Counted from the stretch's first letter, positions 21,507 to 52,131 are shown. The stretch is 64,000 nt of DNA from Proteobacteria bacterium UBA981 (GCA_002292285.1 DBBP01000002.1:133214-197213), one strand, 5' to 3'. The notes: generated by a model from the sequence alone, not told the origin. Numbers and translations are program-made.

Positions 21507-21583
21507 TGGCGGAGTGGACGGGACTCGAACCCGCGACCCCCGGCGTGACAGGCCGGTATTCTAACCAACTGAACTACCACTCC
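21507..21583 (-). tRNA. tRNA-Asp (GTC)
   Basis: Reverse complement reads GGAGTGGTAGTTCAGTTGGTTAGAATACCGGCCTGTCACGCCGGGGGTCGCGGGTTCGAGTCCCGTCCACTCCGCCA; cloverleaf with GUC anticodon, near-identical to E. coli tRNA-Asp. Confidence 0.9.
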
Positions 21584-21595
21584 GGTGGCTTTACC

Positions 21596-21672
21596 TGGTG
21601 GGTGCTGAGGGGATCGAACCCCCGACCTTCGCCTTGTAAGGGCGACGCTCTCCCAGCTGAGCTAAGCACCCG
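21596..21672 (-). tRNA. tRNA-Val (TAC)
   Basis: Reverse complement GGGTGCTTAGCTCAGCTGGGAGAGCGTCGCCCTTACAAGGCGAAGGTCGGGGGTTCGATCCCCTCAGCACCCACCA; anticodon loop CUUACAA. Confidence 0.9.
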
Positions 21673-28074: not shown

Positions 28075-28159
<85 letters not shown>

Positions 28160-28410
28160 GGCTGCCGAACCATAATTAGAACGTCGCCCAGGCCCCTGAA
28201 ACCAGGCCCGGAGTGCCGTTACCAGCGCCGATGATCAAGAGCCAGCGAGCCCTTGCCGCGGGCGGCGGCGCGCACTGGCGGGCGCCATTATAGGTGCAGC
28301 CTCAACACGTTGGTAGCCCCGCAATTGCCCGCCAAACTGCGCTTGCATACTATACTGGCCAGCGCGAACCGACTGATGTTGGGACGCTCCCACAAATTGA
28401 GGTGCGACCG

Positions 28411-28890
28411 ATGAATAAGCTTTTGCCTGCGTGTGTATTCGCCTTAGTTGTGATGAACACCCCGAATGTGTCGGCGGTCACCGTTGTCGAATGCGTCGAT
28501 GCTGATGGCAACACCTCATTCCGGGACCAATGTCCGCCCGGCTCAAGCCAAAAAGGCAAGAAGGAAATCAGCGGCCTGGGGGGCAACGACGGCCCGGACC
28601 TGAGCGCCGTTGCAGCAGCAAATCCGATTACGCTCTATACCGTGCCGGACTGCGATGCCTGCGATCTGACCCGCAACGCCCTGAGCGGACGGGATCTGCC
28701 CTTCACTGAGAAAAATGTCCAGGACAACGCGGAAATGCAGGAAGAGCTGAAAACGGCCACAGGCGGACTAACCGTTCCGGGCATCGTGATTGGCGACAAA
28801 GTGCTCACCGGCTACAGCCGCGATGCAATTGACAGTGCGCTAAACGGGGCGGGCTATCCGGCTCCAGCTGAATCCGGAACGCCGCAATAA
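28411..28890 (+). CDS. secreted DUF4124-glutaredoxin fusion protein (CxxC = CDAC)
   Basis: ATG at 28411 with GAGG SD; signal peptide MNKLLPACVFALVVMNTPNVSA. A DUF4124-like segment (VECVDADGNTSFRDQCPPG) is followed by a glutaredoxin-fold domain: ITLYTVPDCDACDLTRNALSGRDLPFTEKNV...GLTVPGIVIGDKVLTGY. Confidence 0.6.
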   Translation: MNKLLPACVFALVVMNTPNVSAVTVVECVDADGNTSFRDQCPPGSSQKGKKEISGLGGNDGPDLSAVAAANPITLYTVPDCDACDLTRNALSGRDLPFTEKNVQDNAEMQEELKTATGGLTVPGIVIGDKVLTGYSRDAIDSALNGAGYPAPAESGTPQ

Positions 28891-28902
28891 TCCCCCGACA
28901 GT

Positions 28903-29349
28903 TTGTTACTGGCCGTGTTTAATTCGTCAATCGATGCTGAAGCGGCATTTTACGCCGCCTTTAGCAACGCCGATATTGATGCCATGGCCGCTATCTGGAT
29001 GCCGGGATCAGATGCAATCTGCGTTCATCCCGGCGGCCCGCGTCTATGCGGTCTGGACGCAATACGCCAGAGCTGGTCACTGATTCTGAGCGATTCGATG
29101 CCGCGGCAGTTCGAACTCCGTGGGCGCCTCATTATCGGCTCCGGTGATTGCCGCATTCACACTCTTGAGGAAAACATCAGTGTACCCGGGACCGAATTCG
29201 TCGCGCCGCCGGTGCTGGCGACGAATATTTATCAAAAACATCGGGATGGCTGGTTGATGGTGCTACATCACGCCAGTGTGTCTCCAGAATCAGTCGCGGA
29301 CACGAAAGATACCGACAAGCCGCGCCATTCATCGCAGGTTCTGCATTAG
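28903..29349 (+). CDS. NTF2-like (SnoaL/DUF4440-type) small protein
   Basis: 148 aa; AEAAFYAAFSNADIDAMAAIW is the typical SnoaL-like N-terminal helix. Start codon uncertain (TTG 28903 or GTG 28915). Confidence 0.45.
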   Translation: MLLAVFNSSIDAEAAFYAAFSNADIDAMAAIWMPGSDAICVHPGGPRLCGLDAIRQSWSLILSDSMPRQFELRGRLIIGSGDCRIHTLEENISVPGTEFVAPPVLATNIYQKHRDGWLMVLHHASVSPESVADTKDTDKPRHSSQVLH

Positions 29350-29478
29350 ACCAAATTGAGACGACGACGACGGTAACCCAGGTTGGGTGCCGCTTGGCGG
29401 TTTCGCAATATCCTGCGCTAGGATTACGTCGGGAGTCGCGCGATCAAAGTTCGGAATTCTTCAATCCAACGAGAAAAT

Positions 29479-29554
<76 letters not shown>

Positions 29555-29612
29555 GCTAAAGCGGAAGGTATCTCGGCAATTCGCTCGTGAAATTGCTGAA
29601 ATATTTATTTAG

Positions 29613-29689
29613 TGGGGTGGACGATGGGGTTCGAACCCACGACATCACGGACCACAACCGTGTGCTCTACCAACTGAGCTACGCCCACC
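29613..29689 (-). tRNA. tRNA-His (GTG) with encoded G-1
   Basis: Reverse complement G-GTGGGCGTAGCTCAGTTGGTAGAGCACACGGTTGTGGTCCGTGATGTCGTGGGTTCGAACCCCATCGTCCACCCCA. The extra 5' G pairs with discriminator C73, the histidine identity element. Confidence 0.85.
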
Positions 29690-29796
29690 ATAGGACTAAA
29701 ATGCTTGGATTGAACAGCAACCGCGTTCGGTGCGAGCTAGCCGCTCACCCTGCCACAGTAACGTGCAATCCGTCACTCGAGCCAATCTTCATAGAT

Positions 29797-29873
29797 TGGC
29801 GCGCCTGGCAGGATTCGAACCTGCTACCCTCGGCTTAGAAGGCCGATGCTCTATCCATATGAGCTACAGGCGC
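29797..29873 (-). tRNA. tRNA-Arg (TCT)
   Basis: Reverse complement GCGCCTGTAGCTCATATGGATAGAGCATCGGCCTTCTAAGCCGAGGGTAGCAGGTTCGAATCCTGCCAGGCGCGCCA; anticodon loop CUUCUAA. Confidence 0.85.
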
Positions 29874-29941
29874 ACGACATCGGACGCCTGAACGTGACAC
29901 CCTGCAAGTACAAGTTTAAACCTTGCGACTGCCAACTCAAA

Positions 29942-30018
<77 letters not shown>

Positions 30019-41365: not shown

Positions 41366-43735
41366 CTAATTGCGCGCCGCAAGATCAAGCCAAGTTTGCA
41401 CCACCGTATCCGGATTGAGCGAAATGCTCTCGATGCCCTGATCAAGCAGCCATTCAGCAAGATCTTCATGATCTGATGGCCCTTGCCCGCAGATCCCAAC
41501 GTATTTGTCAGCCGCCCGACAGGCTGCAATCGCTTGCGCCATAAGCGCTTTAACCGCGTCGTTGCGCTCGTCGAAACGATCGGCAACGAGCCCCGAGTCG
41601 CGATCCAGGCCGAGCGTCAATTGAGTTAAATCGTTCGAGCCGATGGAAAAACCATCGAAATGTTCGAGAAATTGTTCTGCAAGTAGTGCGTTGGAGGGCA
41701 ACTCACACATCATGATGACGCGTAAATCATTCTCACCGCGAGCCAATCCGTTCGCGCCGAGCAATGTCATTACTTGTGCCGCCTCTTCCACCGTTCGCAC
41801 AAACGGGACCATCACTTGTACGTTACTGAGACCCATCTCATTGCGGACATAGCGCAAGGCCTCACATTCCATTTCAAAGCAGGGTTGAAACGATTCGGCG
41901 ACGTAACGCGACGCGCCTCGAAATCCGAGCATAGGGTTCTCTTCGTCCGGCTCGTAGCGCTGTCCACCGATGAGATTCGCATATTCATTCGATTTAAAGT
42001 CAGACAAGCGGACAATCACCGGCTCTGGGGCAAACGCCGCGCCAATCGTTGAGATACCTTCAATGAGGCGCTGGACAAAGAACTCCCGCGGACTCGGGTA
42101 GGCGGCGATAAGCGGCGCGATTGTGGCCTTCAGATCGACCGGTAAGTGGTCGTATTCGAGTAACGCACGTGGATGAATGCCAATCATCCGGTTGATAATG
42201 AACTCAAGGCGCGCGAGACCAACACCACGATGCGGTAATGCGGCGAACGCGAACGCGCGGTCAGGATTGCCGACATTCATCATGATTTTGAGGCCGATTT
42301 CGGGCATCGCATCGAGTTTTATTTCGCGTCGCTCAAAATCCAGATCGCCGGCATAGACATACCCGGTATCACCACCCGCGCAAGACACTGTGACGGCGTC
42401 GCCGGCCTGGATCGCGTCAGTGGCGTCGCCGCAACCCACGATAGCGGGAACGCCTAGTTCGCGCGCGATGATCGCGGCATGACAGGTGCGGCCACCGCGA
42501 TTGGTGACGATCGCCGAAGCGCGCTTCATGACCGGCTCCCAATCCGGGTCAGTCATGTCTGTTACGAGCACATCGCCTTCCCGTAGCGTGTCCATTTGTT
42601 CAATGCTACTGAGAACGCGCGCGGTGCCGGCACCAATTTTCTGACCAATACTACGACCTTCGGCGAGCACTGGGCCTTCGCCCTTCAATTCGTAGCGTTC
42701 GATGATTTGGCCGCTGTGGCTTTGCACGGTCTCGGGGCGAGCCTGCACGACATAGAGCTGGCCGTCGATACCATCTTTGGCCCACTCGATGTCCATCGGA
42801 CGGCCATAATGGGCTTCGATCGCCATCGCGAGGCGAGCGAGTTCTTCAACCTCGTCGTCCGTAATGCAAAAGCATTGACGTTTGGCCTCGGCAACTTCTG
42901 TGGTGATCACCGGTTCTGCGCCGTCGGCACCTTTATCGGCGTAGATCATCTGCAAGTGCTTACTGCCCGCAGTGCGTCTCAAAATGCCTTTTTTAGCAGC
43001 AGCAATTGCCGGCTTGTAGACGTAAAACTCGTCAGGATTTACTGCCCCCTGAACGACCATTTCACCCAGTCCGTAGCTGGCCGTCACAAATACAACATCG
43101 CGAAACCCCGACTCGGTATCGAGCGTGAACATCACGCCGCTGGCGCCGATGTCACTGCGTACCATGCGCTGGATTCCGGCCGACAGGGCGACCTGATGGT
43201 GGGAGAATCCCTGATGCACGCGGTAGGAAATCGCGCGGTCGTTAAACAACGAAGCAAACACATCCTTGATGCGGCGGCAAACGTCGGCAATGCCATTAAC
43301 GTTGAGGTAGGTCTCCTGTTGACCGGCAAATGAAGCGGTCGGTAAATCTTCGGCAGTGGCCGATGAGCGCACTGCAACGGAAAATTCTTCGCCAATGTCG
43401 CTCTGCATCGCGCTGTAGGCAGTCTCGACGCTTTGCTGGAGGGCTGGAGGAAATGGGGCGTCGATAATCCATTGTCGGATTTCCTTGCCGGTGCGCACCA
43501 GTTCTCCAACGTCTTCGACATCCAGACCGTCAAGCGTGTCATTGATGCGCTGGTCGAGGCCAGCAGCGTTGAGAAAATCGCGGAATGCCTGTGCGGTGGT
43601 GGCGAAACCGCCTGGTACACGTACGCCAGCGGCGTCGAGGTGGCGGATCATTTCGCCAAGCGACGCATTCTTACCACCGACGCTGTCGACGTCATCGATA
43701 CCCACGTCTTTCAGAGAGACGATATAATCGTTCAT
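41366..43735 (-). CDS. ppsA: phosphoenolpyruvate synthase (pyruvate, water dikinase)
   Basis: 789 aa; [29 protein letters not shown] start, phosphohistidine-domain [24 protein letters not shown]-utilising C-terminal domain. Confidence 0.95.
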
Positions 43736-43845: not shown

Positions 43846-44652
43846 ATGAAACGTCGTGTTTTTTTTATCTCCGATCGCACCGGAATCACTGCGGAAATGC
43901 TGGGAGCCAGCCTGCTCACGCAGTTCCCTGATATCGAATTCCAGCGCACGAATATCCCGTTCGTGACCAATACGTTGGCAGCGCAGAGCGCCGTCGCCAC
44001 AATCACCAAGGCAGCCAACGAGAGTGACGCGCCGCCACTGGTGTTCAGTACTCTTACCGACCCGGACGTGCAGCACATTATTGCGACCAGCAGCCCCTAC
44101 GTCTTCGACCTGTTCGGCACCTTCATTGAGCCACTTGAAGCGGCGCTTGACCGCGAATCTTCGCATACGGCCGGGCGCATGCACGGTATCGGCGACGCCA
44201 ATGTCTACGAACGCCGTGTACACGCACTCAATTTTACCCTTGGACACGACGATGGACTCAGTCCCCGTAGTCTTAATGAAGCCGATATTGTCCTGCTGGG
44301 CGTGTCGCGCTGCGGGAAAACGCCGACGTGCCTGTACCTGGCGATGCATTATTCGCTCAAGGCCGCCAATTACCCCCTTACCGACGACGATTTTGACGAC
44401 CAGCGCCTGCCCAAAATTCTCATGCCTGCGCGCGACAAATTATATGGCCTGACAATCGTTCCCGAGCAATTAAGCCGTATTCGCCGTGAGCGCCGCCCGC
44501 AGGGAAAGTACGCGACACTACCTCAGTGCCGGGCTGAAGTATCGCAGGCGGAAGCGATGTTTCGTGCCGACAACATTCAATTTATCGACACAACCACTGT
44601 CTCGATCGAAGAGATCGCCGCCACTATCGTGCGCGATATGCAGCTCCACTAG
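43846..44652 (+). CDS. ppsR: PEP synthase regulatory protein (bifunctional kinase/pyrophosphorylase, DUF299)
   Basis: 268 aa; FFISDRTGITAE, GVSRCGKTPT P-loop; divergent from ppsA as in E. coli. Confidence 0.9.
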   Translation: MKRRVFFISDRTGITAEMLGASLLTQFPDIEFQRTNIPFVTNTLAAQSAVATITKAANESDAPPLVFSTLTDPDVQHIIATSSPYVFDLFGTFIEPLEAALDRESSHTAGRMHGIGDANVYERRVHALNFTLGHDDGLSPRSLNEADIVLLGVSRCGKTPTCLYLAMHYSLKAANYPLTDDDFDDQRLPKILMPARDKLYGLTIVPEQLSRIRRERRPQGKYATLPQCRAEVSQAEAMFRADNIQFIDTTTVSIEEIAATIVRDMQLH

Positions 44653-44972
44653 CCGTCGGCGTGCGGCCCGTCGTTCACGCTGTAGGCGAACCGGTTCCAG
44701 CGAACTAAGGAGGGAACTCCGTGCCACCAGCCCACTCGAGCATCACATCGCGGTGAATCGCTGAGGGCGGGGAAACGCATATCTGAACTCGATATATGCA
44801 GCGAATACCGCGACAATGCCGGGCGTAAGGTCAGTGCGACCGCCGCGTAGCGGATCGCTGATCTGGTGCTCAGTCTAGAATCATCCACAAGCCTCGACCC
44901 GCTAGTGCGGGCTGTGACGTCCGCTCTCGATATCGGACTGGCTTCCTGAAACTCTGTTGTTGGCGGTGACCT

Positions 44973-45551
44973 ATGCGAATTGTGACCCTGATTTTTGCCC
45001 TTGCGCTGTTTTGCTCAACGGCTCAGGCCGAGTCGACGACTTTTCAACAGCATGAAGTCGATATTTACTCGGCGTTGATCAACCACGGTCTGGGTACCCG
45101 GGTACCGATTGTGGTGCTCTCCGAGCAGACCACCGGTGTCCCCGCCGCTATCGCGGAACACGAAGACACTGCGGCCCTGGTCAACGAACTCGGCGCACCC
45201 GCCACCGCACTGCGAAGCTGGCAACGTCGCAATGACTCCCGCCACGCGATTGAAAGCCCGCTCAAACTCGACGTGTCCTATCAAATGCTGGATGCCGAAA
45301 TGCGCGCCGAACTATTCGATGGTGTGGAACCGGCTGCCGGTTGGGGTCGATTCTTTGCCCACTTCGAGGGCGCACCGGGCCTGCTACGAGTGTCGCGCGC
45401 TGGCTTTGACGACGTTCTCAAACACGCGCTGGTCTATGCGGAGTTCCAATGCGGGATCAATTGCGGCTCTGGGCGTCTAATCCACCTGATCAACGACACC
45501 GGTAAGACGTGGCAAGTGAGCAATGCCGCTGTCGTGTGGATGGTCGAGTAA
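44973..45551 (+). CDS. secreted hypothetical protein
   Basis: 192 aa; signal peptide MRIVTLIFALALFCSTAQA; no recognisable domain; first gene of a tightly spaced plus-strand cluster. Confidence 0.5.
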   Translation: MRIVTLIFALALFCSTAQAESTTFQQHEVDIYSALINHGLGTRVPIVVLSEQTTGVPAAIAEHEDTAALVNELGAPATALRSWQRRNDSRHAIESPLKLDVSYQMLDAEMRAELFDGVEPAAGWGRFFAHFEGAPGLLRVSRAGFDDVLKHALVYAEFQCGINCGSGRLIHLINDTGKTWQVSNAAVVWMVE

Positions 45552-45670
45552 CGGTCATCTGTGCCGATGGCAACAGCGGTCTCGGGTCATGCGCAGGTTT
45601 TATTTTCGATCGGACGCAATTCCAGCGCCGCTCTAACCAGCGACGCCTAATCACAAGGTAGCATTCGATC

Positions 45671-46222
45671 ATGGCCTATTCGGTCTGCGTGTTCTGCGGC
45701 TCACGCAACGGCAACGACGAAGTTTATCGCGACGCTTGCGATAATTTCGGTCGCGAGCTCGCCATGCGGGAGATGTCGCTGGTGTACGGCGGCGGCAAAG
45801 TGGGTTTAATGGGCGCAGTCGCCGACGGCGCGCTCGATTTAGGTGGCCACGTAGTAGGCGTCATCCCGGATTTCCTCAGTCGTGACGAAGTGATCCATCC
45901 CGGGCTGCATGAGAATCTGGTTGTCGATGACTTGTTCGAGCGTAAGGCCATGATGATTGAACGCGCAGACGCCTTCGTCGCACTGCCGGGCGGGATCGGC
46001 ACTTACGACGAGGTCCTCGAAGTAATCGCCTGGCGACAACTGCGTCAGTTACGCCAACCGATTGGATTTCTGAATGTGATGGGTTATTTCGATCCATTTA
46101 TCCAGCTGCTGGACCACACCGCGAGTCAGGGTTTCCTAGCACAGCAGGAATACGCTCATCTGATTGTTGAAGCAAATGCCGCGACATTGCTCGACGCGCT
46201 TGTCGACGCCCCCGCCCCATGA
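45671..46222 (+). CDS. LOG family protein (TIGR00730 Rossmann-fold nucleotide-binding / cytokinin riboside 5'-monophosphate phosphoribohydrolase-like)
   Basis: 183 aa; VFCGSRNG, LVYGGGKVGLMG, PGGIGTYDE motifs. Confidence 0.8.
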   Translation: MAYSVCVFCGSRNGNDEVYRDACDNFGRELAMREMSLVYGGGKVGLMGAVADGALDLGGHVVGVIPDFLSRDEVIHPGLHENLVVDDLFERKAMMIERADAFVALPGGIGTYDEVLEVIAWRQLRQLRQPIGFLNVMGYFDPFIQLLDHTASQGFLAQQEYAHLIVEANAATLLDALVDAPAP

Positions 46223-46899
46223 GTAAAACCCACAGCCATTTCCGAGCCGTCGTGTTCGATATGGACGGCATCCTGATCGACTCCGAACCGCTGTTTCGTA
46301 GTGTCGCGAAACAGACCGCGGCGGATTTGGGCTATACCTTGAGCGACGCCGTCTATGTGCAGTGGATGGGGCTGCCACCCAAGGCCGTCGAAGCGGCTGT
46401 CGTTCAGAGCATGGGACCTGAATTCCCGATTGAAACATTTCGCGAACGCTTCTCTGAGCACTGGACGACCCATACCGACTTGCATGGCGTCCCGGCGCAG
46501 CCGGGCATCCCCGAGCTACTGGCTGAATTGCAGGCCCGTGATATCCCCTTCGCAGTCGCGACATCGACGCGGCGCAATCACGCAGAGCGCTCGCTCGAAA
46601 TGGCCGGATTAGCAAGCTTCATCGATGTGCTGGTCGGCGGCGATGAAGTTGAGCAAGGGAAACCGGAACCTGAAATCTTTCAGTCTGCGGCTAAAAAGAT
46701 CGCGGTGCCTGCGGCATCATGTGTGGCGCTGGAAGATTCAAGCGTCGGCGTACGCGCTGCCTCAAGCGCCCGCATGCTGACCATTATGGTGCCTGACCTA
46801 CACTTGCCGAGCGCCGAAATTGCCGCGCTCGCTCGCTTCGTCGTACCGTCCACAAGTCGTGCCGCCGAAGTCGTCCTTACGCTGTTCGATTCCCGGTGA
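46219..46899 (+). CDS. HAD-IA family phosphatase
   Basis: 226 aa; motif I VVFDMDGILIDSEP, motif III K, motif IV ED; 4-bp overlap with LOG gene. Confidence 0.75.
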   Translation: MSKTHSHFRAVVFDMDGILIDSEPLFRSVAKQTAADLGYTLSDAVYVQWMGLPPKAVEAAVVQSMGPEFPIETFRERFSEHWTTHTDLHGVPAQPGIPELLAELQARDIPFAVATSTRRNHAERSLEMAGLASFIDVLVGGDEVEQGKPEPEIFQSAAKKIAVPAASCVALEDSSVGVRAASSARMLTIMVPDLHLPSAEIAALARFVVPSTSRAAEVVLTLFDSR

Positions 46900-47396
46900 A
46901 TAACGCCATGATGAAAACCGTCGCGGCAACAGTGCTGCTTACCCTACTCTCAGTAGCCGCCGCCGAAACCTTACAAGCGCCGGCTCTACCGAGCGCAGCG
47001 GAGGCACTCGCCGCCTACAAGGAATTCAACGCCGCGCCGGTCGCAGGTCTCAGAGCGGCGCAGACGTTCGTAGATTTCATCCGCGGCACCGGCGAAATCC
47101 ATATTGTGCTGAACGAAAACTTGCTGAGCTGGATGTATAAGGACTTCGACCCGCAATCGAAAGCAGTCCTGTACGCTGCCTTTCTGGGTGGCAATATGCG
47201 CGCGCAATTAGAAGATGGTGAAAGCAGTAACGGGGATGTCGCCGGTATGCTGAGCGCTGTCGCGGCCTATCGCGCTTTGCAGGCACAGAACGCGAATTTT
47301 TCACTACCGTTTTTCGAGCGCTTACTCAGCGCCGAGACGAATGGTGATCTGACGTTAAAACTCAATCAGCTCATGGCCGGAGCGGACAACGACTGA
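46896..47396 (+). CDS. secreted hypothetical protein
   Basis: 166 aa; signal peptide MMKTVAATVLLTLLSVAAA; 4-bp overlap with the upstream HAD gene. Confidence 0.5.
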   Translation: MNNAMMKTVAATVLLTLLSVAAAETLQAPALPSAAEALAAYKEFNAAPVAGLRAAQTFVDFIRGTGEIHIVLNENLLSWMYKDFDPQSKAVLYAAFLGGNMRAQLEDGESSNGDVAGMLSAVAAYRALQAQNANFSLPFFERLLSAETNGDLTLKLNQLMAGADND

Positions 47397-47399
47397 CCG

Positions 47400-47909
47400 A
47401 TGAGTGGCACTCGCTTGGTTACCAGCGTCGTTGATATCACCAGATTGAAATACGACGCGATTGTCAACGCGGCCAACGAGTCTTTGCTTGGCGGCGGTGG
47501 CGTGGACGGCGCGATCCATCGAGCTGCCGGACCGGAGCTGCTCGAATTCTGCCGTCACCTTGGCGGCTGCCCGACGGGCGCAGCCCGGATCACGCCCGCG
47601 TTCCAGCTACCAAGCCAACACATCATTCATACTGTCGGTCCGGTATGGCAGGGCGGCGTAGCGCACGAGGCGGACCTTCTGACGAGTTGCTATAACGTTT
47701 CTCTCACTTTGGCGCGAGAAAACGAGATTAAATCGATTGCCTTCCCAGCGATCAGTTGCGGGGTCTACGGCTACCCGCATGCTGAAGCTGCTGTCGTCGC
47801 CGTCGAGACTGTCCGAGCCAGTGTTGCCCGCTCCGATGAGATAGAATTGGTTCACTTCGCGTGCTTCAGCGAACCCATGCTTGAGCTGTACGCAGCACTG
47901 CTCGAATAA
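47400..47909 (+). CDS. macro-domain protein (YmdB-like O-acetyl-ADP-ribose deacetylase)
   Basis: 169 aa; [23 protein letters not shown] and HTVGPVW are the macro-domain ADP-ribose-binding signatures. Confidence 0.8.
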
Positions 47910-47918
47910 ACCGGCGTC

Positions 47919-48803
47919 ATGGCGAGAAAACAACGCTTCCACCGCAAAACACTGGCCATCGTTTACGACTTCGACGGCACGTTAACGCCGCAGCCCATGC
48001 AGGAATACACGGTGCTGCCTGAACTCGGCATCTCTGCCGCGGAATTCTGGTCTGAGGTCAACGACGAAGTACGCCGCACCGGTGGCGATTCGATCCTGAC
48101 CTACATGCGTTTGCTGGTCGAAAAAATTGAAGCTAACAAAGCGCACCTGAGCCGCGAAGCGCTGCGCCAATTGGCCTCTGACATCCAGTACTACCCTGGC
48201 GTCGAGGGGTGGTTTGATCACGTCAACGACTATGTGGCAAAAATCAGTGGCGATACGGTACAGACGAAGCACTACATTATTTCTGCCGGACTAAGCGAAA
48301 TTCTCGAAGGCATCAGTATCAAGCATCACTTCAGCCGAATTTACGCCTCGCAATATTATTTCGACCATCATGAAGCTGCACGTTTCCCCACCATCGTGAT
48401 CAACGACACCGCAAAAACGCAGTACCTTTTTCGAATCAACAAAGGACGTGAACAAGCGCTGGAGACGATTAATGAGTACATGCCTGAAACTGAGCGCCCG
48501 GTTCCGTTTCAACACATGCTCTATATCGGCGACGGCCTCACCGACGTGCCGTGTATGACAGTCGTTAAAAACTATGGTGGCTTCGCGTTGGCCGTGCATA
48601 AACCGCGTAGCGCGCCGGCGGTCGCGGTGTGCAAGGAGCTCGCCGATGCGAATCGCATCGATTTTTACGCACCAGCGGACTATCGCCCGGGTCGTACACT
48701 CGAGCGTCGGGTGCAGAAGATTCTCGACTTGATCGTTGCGCGCATCAGTTTCGAAACTGAGCGCAATGAATTTCTCCACGACATTGATAAAGGCCAGGCG
48801 TGA
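47919..48803 (+). CDS. HAD-superfamily hydrolase (subfamily IB-like)
   Basis: 294 aa; motif I VYDFDGTLT, motif IV YIGDGLTDVP, with a large cap insert. Confidence 0.6.
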   Translation: MARKQRFHRKTLAIVYDFDGTLTPQPMQEYTVLPELGISAAEFWSEVNDEVRRTGGDSILTYMRLLVEKIEANKAHLSREALRQLASDIQYYPGVEGWFDHVNDYVAKISGDTVQTKHYIISAGLSEILEGISIKHHFSRIYASQYYFDHHEAARFPTIVINDTAKTQYLFRINKGREQALETINEYMPETERPVPFQHMLYIGDGLTDVPCMTVVKNYGGFALAVHKPRSAPAVAVCKELADANRIDFYAPADYRPGRTLERRVQKILDLIVARISFETERNEFLHDIDKGQA

Positions 48804-49402
48804 CCTCAATAGTACGGCGCGAATTTCCTCGGGACGCGATTGCGCCCTGTCGTTTAGCGGACACCAAACCCGGACGACGTCAGCTGCTGGTACTCGCGCT
48901 GCTCTTTGGACTGCTTAGTAGCGGCGGCTGCAGCAAAGTCGCTATGCCGTCAATGCCAAACGTATCGATGCCGAAAGTCTCAATGCCCAAGCTCCCAAGC
49001 CTTGGCGGCGATGACGTAGCGGATTCGACGGCGACACCGCGCGATTTACTGACCGCACGCCTGGTCAATCCCCGCGCTAGTGAAAACACACCGAATATGA
49101 CTGTTGGAAAGATGATCGAATTCGCCGACCGTTACCTGGCCTGCGATTGTTCCAGTACCCGTTTCGTACGTGCATGGGAACGCACCGATCGGGGCTATAA
49201 GCTACTCACGAATTCAGATGTTCTGCGCCCGATCGAATTCATTTGCCAGACTGCCGACAGCGGTCGCGAATGTTTTCTGACCGAAATCGACCGCGGCGCG
49301 AACGAGCCGGCGCTGGCTGAGCGTTTTGTACCCGGTTCACAATTCATACAGTTTCTTTACGACAACGGCGTGCGCTGCGATCGTGAAGAACCGTGCCCCT
49401 AA
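48800..49402 (+). CDS. lipoprotein with short tandem MP(S/K)x peptide repeats
   Basis: 200 aa; lipobox LLSSGGC; repeat AMPSMPNVSMPKVSMPKLPS encoded by a near-perfect 12-nt DNA repeat at about 48944-48995; 4-bp overlap with the upstream gene. Confidence 0.5.
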   Translation: MTSIVRREFPRDAIAPCRLADTKPGRRQLLVLALLFGLLSSGGCSKVAMPSMPNVSMPKVSMPKLPSLGGDDVADSTATPRDLLTARLVNPRASENTPNMTVGKMIEFADRYLACDCSSTRFVRAWERTDRGYKLLTNSDVLRPIEFICQTADSGRECFLTEIDRGANEPALAERFVPGSQFIQFLYDNGVRCDREEPCP

Positions 49403-49485: not shown

Positions 49486-52131
49486 ATGGCAGAAGCTGAC
49501 AGCGACCCGCAAGAGACACAAGAATGGCTTGAAGCTCTGGACGCGGTGATCGACGTCGAGGGGGTTGAACGCAGCCACTATCTGCTCGAGAAACTCATCG
49601 ACCAGGCACGCCGCTCGGGCGTCAACTTGCCCTACTCTGCCAAGACCGCCTACATCAACACAATCCCACCGCAACGTGAAGTCTACACACCCGGCAACCC
49701 CGAACTCGAATGGCGAATTCGTTCGATCAATCGCTGGAACGCGATGGCGATGGTGGTCAAAGCAAATCTGCACAACAGTGAACTTGGTGGTCACATAGCG
49801 AGCTACGCCAGTGCAGCTACCTTGTACGAAGTTGGTTATAACCACTTCTGGCACGCTCCCAGCGCCGACCACGGTGGTGACCTGGTGTTTTTTCAGGGCC
49901 ACTCGGCGCCTGGAATCTACGCGCGAGCGTTTTTACTCGGGCAGCTCGACGAACAGCAACTGAACAATTTTCGCCAGGAAGTCGATGGCGGCGGGCTGTC
50001 GTCGTACCCCCATCCGTGGCTGATGCCGGGCTTCTGGCAATTCCCCACAGTGTCGATGGGCCTCGGCCCAATCATGGCGATTTATCAGGCGCGCTTCATG
50101 CGCTATTTGCAGAACCGGGAACTCGTACAGAGCCCGCAACGTAAAGTCTGGGCTTTCATGGGCGACGGCGAGATGGACGAGCCGGAAGCTTTCGGCGCTG
50201 CCGCGCTGGCTTCGCGGGAGAAGCTCGACAATCTGGTCTTTGTCATCAATTGCAATTTGCAGCGCCTCGACGGTCCGGTGCGCGGCAACGGCAAAATCAT
50301 CCAGGAGCTCGAATCTGATTTTCGCGGCGCCGGTTGGAACGTGATCAAAGTCATTTGGGGTTCAGCCTGGGATCCGCTGCTGGCGAAAGACGCTAAGGGT
50401 TTGCTCCAGGACCGTATGGAAGAATGCGTCGACGGCGAATACCAGGCCTACAAAGCGTTTAACGGTGGCTACGTGCGCGAACATTTCTTCGGCAAATATC
50501 CCGAGTTGAAGGCGATGGTCGCGAGCATGAGCGACGATGATATTTGGCGCCTCAATCGCGGCGGTCACGACCCCCATAAAGTCTACGCGGCCTACGCCGA
50601 GGCGGTCGCGCACACCGGCCAACCGACCGTCATCCTGTGCAAAACCGTCAAGGGTTACGGCATGGGCGAGGCCGGCGAAGGCAAGAACATCACACACGGC
50701 CAGAAGAAGATGGGCCTTGATGCACTCAAACACTTTCGCGATCGTTTCAATATTCCGGTCGCTGACGAAATCATTGCCGACGCGCCGTACTACAAACCAG
50801 CCGAAGACAGTGACGAGATGCGCTATTTGCGCGAGCGTACTGAAGCACTCGGTGGCTTTCTGCCACAGCGTCGTACCCATGCCGAACCGCTCACGATTCC
50901 CGATATCTCGATCTTCGACAATCTCCTGGCAGGCTCAGGTGAACGTGAGTTGTCGACCACCATGGCTTTTGTGCGTCTGCTCAATGCGCTGGTCCGGAAC
51001 AAGGAAATCGGCCCGCGCGTGGTCCCCATCGTGCCGGACGAAGCGCGCACCTTTGGCATGGAAGGGATGTTCCGCCAGCTCGGAATTTATTCGGCCGTCG
51101 GGCAACTGTATGAGCCGATGGATCATGATGAATTGATGTACTACCGCGAGGACATCAAAGGACAGATCCTCGAGGAAGGCATCAACGAGGCAGGTGGCAT
51201 GTGCTCGTGGATTGCTGCGGCGACGGCCTATTCCAGTCACAACCTGCAGATGATTCCATTCTTCATCTACTACTCGATGTTTGGTTTTCAACGCATTGGT
51301 GATCTCGCCTGGGCGGCCGGCGATATGCAGGCACGCGGATTTTTGCTCGGTGGGACAGCGGGACGTACAACCCTCGCCGGCGAAGGGCTCCAGCATCAGG
51401 ACGGCCACAGTCACATTCTCGCCGCGACCATTCCTAACTGCGTCAGCTATGACCCCGCGTTTGGCTACGAACTCGCGGTCATTGTGCATTACGGCATGAA
51501 GCGCATGTTCGAGCGGCAGGAGAACGTGTTTTATTACCTCACTGTGATGAACGAAAACTATGCCCACCCCGCCATGCCGGACGGCGTTGAAGACGCGATA
51601 GTAAAAGGCATGTATCTGTTTCGCAGTGACGCTGGTGCACAGGTGCAATTGCTAGGTAGCGGCACCATTCTGCGCGAGGTGCTCGCGGCTGCGGATCTTC
51701 TGGCGGCAGATTTCGGCGTTAGCGCCAACGTCTGGAGCGTAACCAGTTTCAATGAGCTGTTACGCGACGGACTCGAGTGTTCGCGTTGGAACATGCTGCA
51801 TCCCGCCGAGGCGCCGAAAGAAAGCTATGTGACCGGTCAACTGAGCCCGCATCGCGGTCCGTGTGTCGCGGCGACGGATTACATCCGCGCTTACGCTGGG
51901 CAGATCCGGGAATACGTACCGGGGCGTTATAGCGTGCTCGGTACGGATGGATTCGGGCGCTCGGACTCGCGCGCAAAATTGCGTGCCTATTTCGAGATCG
52001 ACCGCCACTATGTTGTCGTCGCCGCCCTGAAGGCGCTCGCGGACGACGGCGATATCGATATACAGCTGGTTGCCGATGCTATCAGCCGCTATGGCATCGA
52101 CGCAGACAAACCCAACCCAATGAGTCAGTAG
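49486..52131 (+). CDS. aceE: pyruvate dehydrogenase E1 component
   Basis: 881 aa; homodimeric E1 (AceE-type) collinear along its full length, thiamine-diphosphate GDG motif region. Confidence 0.95.
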   Translation: MAEADSDPQETQEWLEALDAVIDVEGVERSHYLLEKLIDQARRSGVNLPYSAKTAYINTIPPQREVYTPGNPELEWRIRSINRWNAMAMVVKANLHNSELGGHIASYASAATLYEVGYNHFWHAPSADHGGDLVFFQGHSAPGIYARAFLLGQLDEQQLNNFRQEVDGGGLSSYPHPWLMPGFWQFPTVSMGLGPIMAIYQARFMRYLQNRELVQSPQRKVWAFMGDGEMDEPEAFGAAALASREKLDNLVFVINCNLQRLDGPVRGNGKIIQELESDFRGAGWNVIKVIWGSAWDPLLAKDAKGLLQDRMEECVDGEYQAYKAFNGGYVREHFFGKYPELKAMVASMSDDDIWRLNRGGHDPHKVYAAYAEAVAHTGQPTVILCKTVKGYGMGEAGEGKNITHGQKKMGLDALKHFRDRFNIPVADEIIADAPYYKPAEDSDEMRYLRERTEALGGFLPQRRTHAEPLTIPDISIFDNLLAGSGERELSTTMAFVRLLNALVRNKEIGPRVVPIVPDEARTFGMEGMFRQLGIYSAVGQLYEPMDHDELMYYREDIKGQILEEGINEAGGMCSWIAAATAYSSHNLQMIPFFIYYSMFGFQRIGDLAWAAGDMQARGFLLGGTAGRTTLAGEGLQHQDGHSHILAATIPNCVSYDPAFGYELAVIVHYGMKRMFERQENVFYYLTVMNENYAHPAMPDGVEDAIVKGMYLFRSDAGAQVQLLGSGTILREVLAAADLLAADFGVSANVWSVTSFNELLRDGLECSRWNMLHPAEAPKESYVTGQLSPHRGPCVAATDYIRAYAGQIREYVPGRYSVLGTDGFGRSDSRAKLRAYFEIDRHYVVVAALKALADDGDIDIQLVADAISRYGIDADKPNPMSQ

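Follow-up and report, generated by a model that had tools for sequence, protein, structure and literature searches.

A run of seven plus-strand genes occupies positions 44,973 to 49,402 of a 64,000-nucleotide stretch of DNA from Proteobacteria bacterium UBA981 (GCA_002292285.1, DBBP01000002.1:133214-197213); this whole stretch is referred to below as the window. The genes encode, in order, an exported protein (g1), a LOG-family enzyme (g2), a HAD-IA phosphatase (g3), a second exported protein (g4), a macro-domain protein (g5), a HAD-IB-like phosphatase (g6) and a lipoprotein (g7). The locus raises the question of whether these genes form one operon and whether the proximity of LOG and macro genes marks a dedicated pathway for an ADP-ribose- or nucleotide-derived metabolite, as was proposed in an earlier note made from the sequence alone. 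The reading favored here, held at about even probability, is that of an operon specific to one uncultured gammaproteobacterial group and inherited vertically within it, located between ppsA-ppsR and aceEF and consisting of a five-gene core and a variable slot.

Organization of the gene block

All seven open reading frames (ORFs) of the earlier note were reproduced by mechanical ORF calling, and its assignments to the LOG, HAD-IA, macro and HAD-IB-like families were upheld by profile scores. The first gene, g1 (44973-45551), encodes an exported protein of 192 aa and is separated by a 119 bp spacer (45552-45670) from g2 (45671-46222), which was identified by Pfam and NCBIfam profiles and by its motifs as a homologue of the type-I LOG (TIGR00730) nucleoside-5'-monophosphate phosphoribohydrolases. 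It is followed by g3 (46219-46899), a HAD-IA phosphatase gene of the beta-phosphoglucomutase/HxpB/MtlD-phosphatase-like kind according to profiles and solved-chain matches, and by g4 (46896-47396), coding for an exported helical protein of 166 aa without a known family. The product of g5 (47400-47909) was placed by profiles and solved chains among the MacroD/YmdB-type macro domains of the O-acetyl-ADP-ribose deacetylase family. The block ends with g6 (47919-48803), for a cytoplasmic HAD-IB-like phosphatase of 294 aa that belongs to the PADLOC candidate family PDC-S34, and g7 (48800-49402), for a lipoprotein of 200 aa defined by ORF calling and orthologue alignment.

Adjacent genes overlap by 4 bp at 46219/46222 (LOG/HAD-IA), 46896/46899 (HAD-IA/g4) and 48800/48803 (HAD-IB/g7), while the gaps between g4 and the macro gene and between the macro and HAD-IB genes are 3 bp and 9 bp long. 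Five of the six junctions therefore lie within -4 to +9 bp; the description of all junctions as 3-9 bp gaps or 4-bp overlaps fails at g1/LOG, with its 119 bp. The G+C content of the block (0.54-0.59) equals that of the rest of the window. A consensus scan for promoters and terminators found such sites no more commonly than in shuffled sequence.

Conservation across related genomes

One genome per GTDB species was scanned with an alignment of g6, which yielded 80 loci, nearly all from metagenome-assembled genomes (MAGs) labelled Gammaproteobacteria, and all window proteins were searched against these loci by tblastn. A second, independent scan was anchored on g1 in metagenome contigs. All block-bearing loci are MAGs or metagenomes of one uncultured gammaproteobacterial lineage. 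Gene maps around four g6 homologues showed the block again between ppsR and aceE, and about 65 loci have conserved flanks, with ppsA 64-85% and aceE 69-90% identical to the window. The gene order in these loci is ppsA (minus strand) and ppsR, then g1, LOG, HAD-IA, a slot of variable content, HAD-IB and g7, and finally aceE and aceF. In the window the corresponding flanks are ppsA (41366-43735, minus strand) and ppsR (43846-44652, plus strand) upstream, and aceE (49486-52131) and aceF (from 52149) downstream.

Five genes (g1, LOG, HAD-IA, HAD-IB and g7) make up a constant core in about 80 related loci found with the two anchors. Among the g1-anchored loci, LOG directly follows g1 in 34 of the 35 that have room for it, and HAD-IB is found in 15 of 15, accompanied by g7 wherever the contig is long enough. 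Homologues of the block genes, far from never being co-localized, thus occur in the same order and with tight spacing in dozens of related genomes, as a check of neighborhood conservation suggested in the earlier note has now established, and their adjacency is far beyond chance. The median junctions over 63 non-redundant loci are 0 bp for g1-LOG, -4 bp for LOG-HAD-IA (61 loci) and -4 bp for HAD-IB-g7; with start codons assigned heuristically, these medians are robust and single large negative values are artefacts. The LOG ORF of the nearest relative found (L088, g6 89% identical) extends upstream and overlaps g1.

The genes on either side of the block vary. In the 51 loci compared, the interval between ppsR and g1 contains a divergent FAA-hydrolase gene on the minus strand 44 times, an mmgE/prpD gene 23 times and an ORFan of 434 aa 19 times, and 6 loci have no gene there; the mmgE/prpD gene is intact in its 23 loci and either adjoins g1 or lies no more than about 0.8 kb upstream of it. 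Between g7 and aceE, a minus-strand, convergent M17 peptidase gene is found in 11 of 45 loci. These divergent and convergent neighbors delimit exactly the unit from g1 to g7, and the block is a real, discrete and conserved unit. What stands of the proposed single operon is a conserved operon-like unit, co-directional and with tight junctions across genomes; the part that does not hold is continuous tight spacing in the window itself, where the g1/LOG gap intervenes.

One sub-lineage has a further gene upstream of g1, for a 245-aa protein (L006:4867-5604, plus strand), which lies between prpD and g1 and overlaps each of them by 4 bp; the matches of this protein to membrane domains (GPDPase_memb, UPF0259) are weak and below threshold.

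The identities of g1, LOG, HAD-IA and HAD-IB to the window follow that of aceE (Spearman rho 0.80-0.88), with median values of 79% for aceE, 74% for HAD-IB, 57% for g7, 55% for LOG, 48% for HAD-IA and 39% for g1. Since identities follow aceE and the G+C content matches the surroundings, the block has been inherited vertically in place, and horizontal acquisition is rejected on the same two grounds.

Vertical descent also gives rise to a serious rival, that the genes share no function and that unrelated housekeeping and lineage-specific genes have been kept together by inheritance and read-through in a compact ppsR-aceEF region. Simple vertical descent predicts that identities follow aceE, as they do, and both in the window and in L088 all genes from ppsR to aceF have the same orientation. 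The wider distributions of the genes also differ, HAD-IB being widespread and solitary, g1-like genes occurring in other contexts and g7 being confined to the lineage, and it would be unusual for one pathway to combine cytoplasmic and exported products. Against this stands the behavior of the junctions: the flanks have been remodelled repeatedly, yet the g1-LOG-HAD-IA and HAD-IB-g7 junctions keep a spacing of 0 to -4 bp, also in loci whose g1 is only 23-35% identical, and in many loci divergent or convergent neighbors bound exactly the g1-g7 unit. Tight junctions amid remodelled flanks suggest selection for the arrangement, and the absence of any shared function is considered rather unlikely.

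Upstream region

The 320-bp region between ppsR and g1 (44653-44972) had been described as a regulated leader with several hairpins. It matches the end of a protein-coding gene instead. In L088 the space between ppsR and g1 is taken up by an mmgE/prpD gene of 467 codons that leads directly into g1, and a tblastn search of the whole window aligned residues 389-458 of the PrpD product with 44725-44928 (43% identity over 70 aa, E 4e-7). An in-frame stop and a frameshift break up the matching sequence, the second frame carrying LEHHIAVNR where L088 has LEHHIRVNR, and when the DNA is aligned with the 3' ends of prpD from L088 and L012, the match reaches the original TGA at 44947-44949. The feature at 44725-44949 (plus strand) is accordingly annotated as a decayed 3' remnant of an mmgE/prpD-family gene. 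Because both the tblastn and the DNA alignments match the prpD 3' end through its TGA, most of the 320-bp region is the relic of a deletion that removed roughly the first 385 prpD codons.

A regulated leader or riboswitch was rejected as an alternative. The region aligns to the coding 3' end of prpD, its predicted folding is no better than chance (z-score +0.59 against dinucleotide shuffles), and Rfam gave no credible match upstream of the block, the only hit being a miRNA model far below threshold inside ppsR. The mini-ORF with a strong Shine-Dalgarno sequence, which had been noted as part of the leader, does exist: AAGGAGG stands 6 nt before the GTG of an 11-codon ORF (44708-44756), at the deletion boundary that forms the 5' edge of the prpD remnant. 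Derivation of this AAGGAGG from the old prpD ribosome-binding site was considered and rejected, as the ppsR-prpD junction of L088 shows no counterpart. The sole matches in the window that reach an Rfam gathering threshold are tRNA clusters on the minus strand, five tRNAs at 28078-30018 and two at 21510-21671.

LOG and HAD-IA genes

The LOG protein matches PF03641 (E 7e-40; 136.7 bits, cut-off 27) and TIGR00730 (177.1 bits, cut-off 96.35), and its translation contains GGGKVGLMG and PGGIGTYDE, which correspond to the family motifs GGGxxGxMG and PGGxGTxxE. The nearest solved chain is 5zbj, a 'putative cytokinin riboside 5'-monophosphate phosphoribohydrolase' (E 3.5e-48). The more specific NCBIfam equivalog cut-offs are not reached, the cytokinin-PRH model NF058542 scoring 122.7 against 300 bits and the PpnN model NF038390 15 against 450 bits. 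Like other type-I LOG/TIGR00730 proteins such as 5zbj, g2 is matched over its full length, has both motifs and is of the size of a single-domain LOG. It differs in its context, namely the 4-bp overlap with a HAD-IA phosphatase gene, with predicted translational coupling, and the exported ORFan g1 upstream. No description of a LOG-HAD operon, or of the arrangement in which g2 is found, was met with in the literature searched.

The HAD-IA protein matches PF13419 (E 3e-31; 109.6 bits, cut-off 23.8) and TIGR01509 (53.2 bits, cut-off 29.4), and the four HAD motifs are present as DMDG, ATS, GKPEP and EDS. Its nearest solved chains are the mannitol-1-phosphate phosphatase domain of MtlD (7oct, E 2e-32), the sugar-phosphate phosphatase TM_1254 and a pseudouridine-5'-phosphatase. 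With these and with HxpB, all HAD-IA sugar- or nucleotide-phosphate phosphatases, it shares the DxDG, T/S, K and ED motifs, and it stays below every substrate-specific equivalog cut-off (for example HxpB, 100.5 against 191 bits, and bPGM, 90.9 against 189.4 bits).

Two loci, L053 and L104, depart from the usual order. In both, g1 runs directly into HAD-IA and LOG is apparently missing, while g1, HAD-IA, macro and HAD-IB are kept; LOG may be dispensable in this one sub-lineage.

The variable slot and the macro gene

The segment between the two HAD genes is occupied in the window by g4 and the macro gene. Of the 63 loci, 15 carry both genes there, 17 have g4 without the macro gene, 13 the macro gene without g4, and 18 lack both. 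If the slot is empty, the HAD genes either adjoin directly or lie only tens to a few hundred bp apart. Altogether g4 is present in 32 of 63 loci; its product gave no match in Pfam, NCBIfam, PADLOC, PHROGs or the PDB, and a hydrophobic, signal-like N-terminus, as the earlier note had reported for the window protein, is kept in 26 of 29 orthologues. The macro gene is present in 28 of the 63 HAD-IB-anchored loci and in 6 of the 15 g1-anchored loci. Both g4 and the macro gene are accessory genes, and the core works without the macro gene, because the latter is absent from 35/63 and 9/15 otherwise intact loci. Two further loci (L047:8409-9346 and L040:8515-9162) hold extra small plus-strand ORFs of 119, 175 and 215 aa in the slot, without Pfam matches. 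The slot between the HAD genes seems to be a hot-spot for lineage-specific genes.

The macro protein itself is well defined. It matches PF01661 (E 2e-45) and passes the equivalog model NF001664 (222.1 bits, cut-off 200), its nearest solved chains are the O-acetyl-ADP-ribose deacetylases 5cb3 and 1spv (E 7e-49), and it carries the catalytic and binding motifs N-x6-GGG-[VL]-D (NAAN...GGGVDGAIH) and G-[IV]-[YF]-G (ISCGVYGYP). Profile and motifs are thus shared with the deacetylases of the E. coli YmdB and human MacroD type (5cb3, 1spv, 4iqy), from which g5 differs in being an optional gene of a variable slot. E. coli ymdB is not known to be linked to the LOG gene of that organism (ygdH/ppnN).

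These data bear on the proposal that all seven genes form a dedicated pathway for an ADP-ribose- or nucleotide-derived metabolite or signal, in which the macro and LOG enzymes would cut different bonds and the two HAD phosphatases would act in sequence. In its favor, the gene string is tight and conserved, and the macro protein is, by its profile and solved-chain matches, a bona fide MacroD/YmdB-type enzyme. A precedent exists in large DNA phages, where SLOG, Macro and NADAR domains co-occur and have been proposed by the Aravind group to split the labor on ADP-ribose derivatives (PMC9503650); in the window, too, genes for a SLOG-superfamily enzyme and a macro domain are close neighbors with the same orientation. 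However, the phage SLOG-Macro neighborhoods contain mostly YpsA-like SLOG domains (PMC9503650), whereas g2 belongs to the LOG-like clade, and the window block further differs in that no NADAR gene was seen, the macro gene is dispensable, and the genes are chromosomal and vertically inherited. An obligatory linkage or fusion of a YpsA-like SLOG domain to Macro or NADAR (PMC9503650) was not found in the block. Among the loci with annotated genes, no ADP-ribosyltransferase, sirtuin, TIR or Nudix gene occurs in the unit, and HAD-IB stands alone outside the lineage. Because the macro gene is dispensable and the documented phage neighborhoods are mostly of the YpsA-like kind, the idea of an ADP-ribose pathway is weakened, and a dedicated pathway of all seven genes is judged improbable. 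The LOG-macro linkage on which the earlier note had built that pathway dissolves into an optional gene that shares a variable slot with g4 and ORFans, next to a HAD-IB gene that is solitary in other phyla.

The HAD-IB gene and PDC-S34

The g6 protein scores 31 bits with PF12710 (cut-off 27) and 35.7 bits with TIGR01488, below the cut-off of 45. Its catalytic motifs YDFDGTLT (DxDxT) and GDGLTD (GDGxxD) are invariant in 16 homologues. The strongest match is to the PADLOC hidden Markov model PDC-S34 (PDLC05002), with E 5.9e-100 and residues 9-282 aligned to profile positions 4-276 of 284; g6 therefore covers nearly the full length of this single-gene, HAD-IB-like candidate model. The other six block proteins gave no PADLOC match beyond a weak SLOG-fold one. 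No sequence or profile match of g6 was found in the PDB, and its structural model is of moderate confidence.

More than 7000 homologues of g6 were found, and the 120th-ranked match is still 72% identical. Outside the lineage, homologues with 56-65% identity occur in MAGs of Desulfobacterales, Sedimenticola, Scalinduaceae, Planctomycetales and Nitrospira. Near these distant homologues the other block genes are all absent, and no neighbor recurs. Some of them, in Scalinduaceae, Sedimenticola and others, adjoin an AbiV-type HEPN gene or a SIR2-like gene (L082:11046-11603 and L074:8778-9863, both plus strand); the AbiV neighbor has E-values of 1e-15 (Pfam) and 1e-20 (PADLOC). A scan of 72 neighboring ORFs within 5 kb of the g6 homologues in L069-L086 also gave PADLOC matches to MADS mad3/mad8 and to AriA/PtuA-like ATPases. 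Other distant homologues adjoin housekeeping genes, for an RF-1-domain protein, PanE and an AlkZ-like protein.

The match to PDC-S34, these neighbors and the frequent occurrence of SLOG and macro domains in NAD/ADP-ribose conflict systems (PMC9503650) would fit an anti-phage or conflict module built around a PDC-S34-type HAD phosphatase, in which immune signals derived from nucleotides would be the substrates of LOG and macro. The setting of g6 in the window argues otherwise. It does not lie in a defence island; its flanks are ppsA, ppsR, aceE and aceF, a stable core-metabolism neighborhood, where it is inherited vertically and is about as conserved as aceE (74% vs. 79% median identity), unlike typical defence genes. 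While distant PDC-S34 homologues stand beside AbiV, SIR2 or MADS genes, g6 is part of a conserved operon in the pps-ace region, next to the gene for a lineage-specific lipoprotein. PDC-S34 is a candidate label of which no mention was found in the literature searched, the remaining block proteins lack comparable PADLOC matches, and a search of 2.9 million viral contigs yielded a single, weak g6 homologue. A defence module is accordingly regarded as very improbable.

A phage origin of the block was also considered and rejected, there being no relevant PHROG matches for g1, g4, g5, g6 or g7 and, among the viral contigs, only that one weak g6 homologue.

Exported proteins

The g1 protein has a predicted signal peptide ending in AQA and a conserved C-terminal domain with an E-x2-CG-x2-CGxGR motif. 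An alignment of 43 sequences shows C160, G161 and C164 to be invariant, and a signal-like N-terminus is kept in 34 of the 43 orthologues. Neither g1 nor g7 gave a match in Pfam, NCBIfam, PADLOC, PHROGs or the PDB, and Pfam scans over all orthologues of both proteins returned noise only. An assignment of g1 to Xre-MbcA-ParS_M was rejected, the matches, in 3 of 43 orthologues at E 0.015, being too weak to be meaningful. Three proteins of 210-230 aa from other metagenome contigs (L139:2751-3395, L146:4848-5477 and L152:2392-3087) share the C-terminal domain of g1 (...ALVYVEHxCGxxCG...) behind an N-terminal hydrophobic segment; no LOG, HAD or g7 gene is located near them. Because the domain recurs in these proteins, g1 belongs to a wider, uncharacterized exported family for which Pfam has no model.

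The g7 protein consists of an N-terminal hydrophobic segment with an invariant lipobox cysteine (Cys44), a linker of MPKVS repeats and a C-terminal domain, about 115 aa long, in which six cysteines are invariant. The hydrophobic segment and the lipobox cysteine are kept in 32 of 32 orthologues, so that the signal-like N-termini noted earlier for g1, g4 and g7 all persist across relatives. The protein is confined to the lineage, an exhaustive profile search of 1.84 billion representative proteins having yielded no more than 20 clusters, and it seems to be an addition specific to this lineage that is coupled to the HAD-IB gene. The possibility that g1, g4 and g7 are mutual paralogues was rejected (hhalign probabilities below 3%).

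Proposed function

In the favored reading of a lineage-specific operon, the genes would be co-transcribed from a promoter upstream of g1, with translational coupling predicted at the 4-bp overlaps. The cytoplasmic enzymes may constitute a loose clean-up or salvage set for nucleotides and sugar phosphates. The cleavage of nucleoside monophosphates to base and ribose-5-phosphate is established for the LOG family (PMC11228631), and by this family chemistry g2 would split a nucleoside 5'-monophosphate in the same way. The overlapping HAD-IA gene would supply a sugar- or nucleotide-phosphate phosphatase that then removes the phosphate. In loci that have it, the macro enzyme would remove an acetyl or phosphate group from ADP-ribose derivatives (O-acetyl-ADP-ribose or ADP-ribose-1''-phosphate), and HAD-IB would hydrolyze some phosphoester.

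Several points weigh against this reading. All co-localization comes from one lineage, and conservation may in part reflect shared ancestry rather than selection for a pathway. The 119-bp gap between g1 and LOG could be the site of an internal promoter in the window, and at the other end aceEF follows on the same strand 83 bp downstream, so that the 3' transcript boundary is not fixed in this genome. The two-step reaction from LOG to HAD-IA draws on family-level chemistry only, neither protein reaching an NCBIfam equivalog cut-off. No obvious pathway emerges from a set of three cytoplasmic hydrolases with two or three exported proteins, and the PDC-S34 label, together with the defence-type neighbors of distant HAD-IB homologues, hints at a different biology.

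A bolder reading is that the five-gene core is one module for the synthesis or breakdown of a nucleotide-derived small molecule, in which an N-glycosidase would act with two phosphatases, the exported proteins would tie the system to the envelope, and plug-ins in the slot such as the macro gene would extend it to ADP-ribose derivatives, possibly in phage conflict or signalling. We consider this quite doubtful.

Significance

These findings chiefly correct the earlier picture: LOG and macro need not occur together, the supposed leader is what remains of a gene, and the block is an ordinary operon passed on vertically, a lineage-specific instance of a common kind of conserved bacterial operon. 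The block holds three uncharacterized exported proteins (g1, g4 and g7), of which g1 and g7 define two new families. If the core is one functional unit, it would offer a hypothesis for the single-domain bacterial LOG enzymes, in which nucleotide cleavage is coupled to a dedicated phosphatase, and it would provide the first stable genomic context for the defence candidate PDC-S34.

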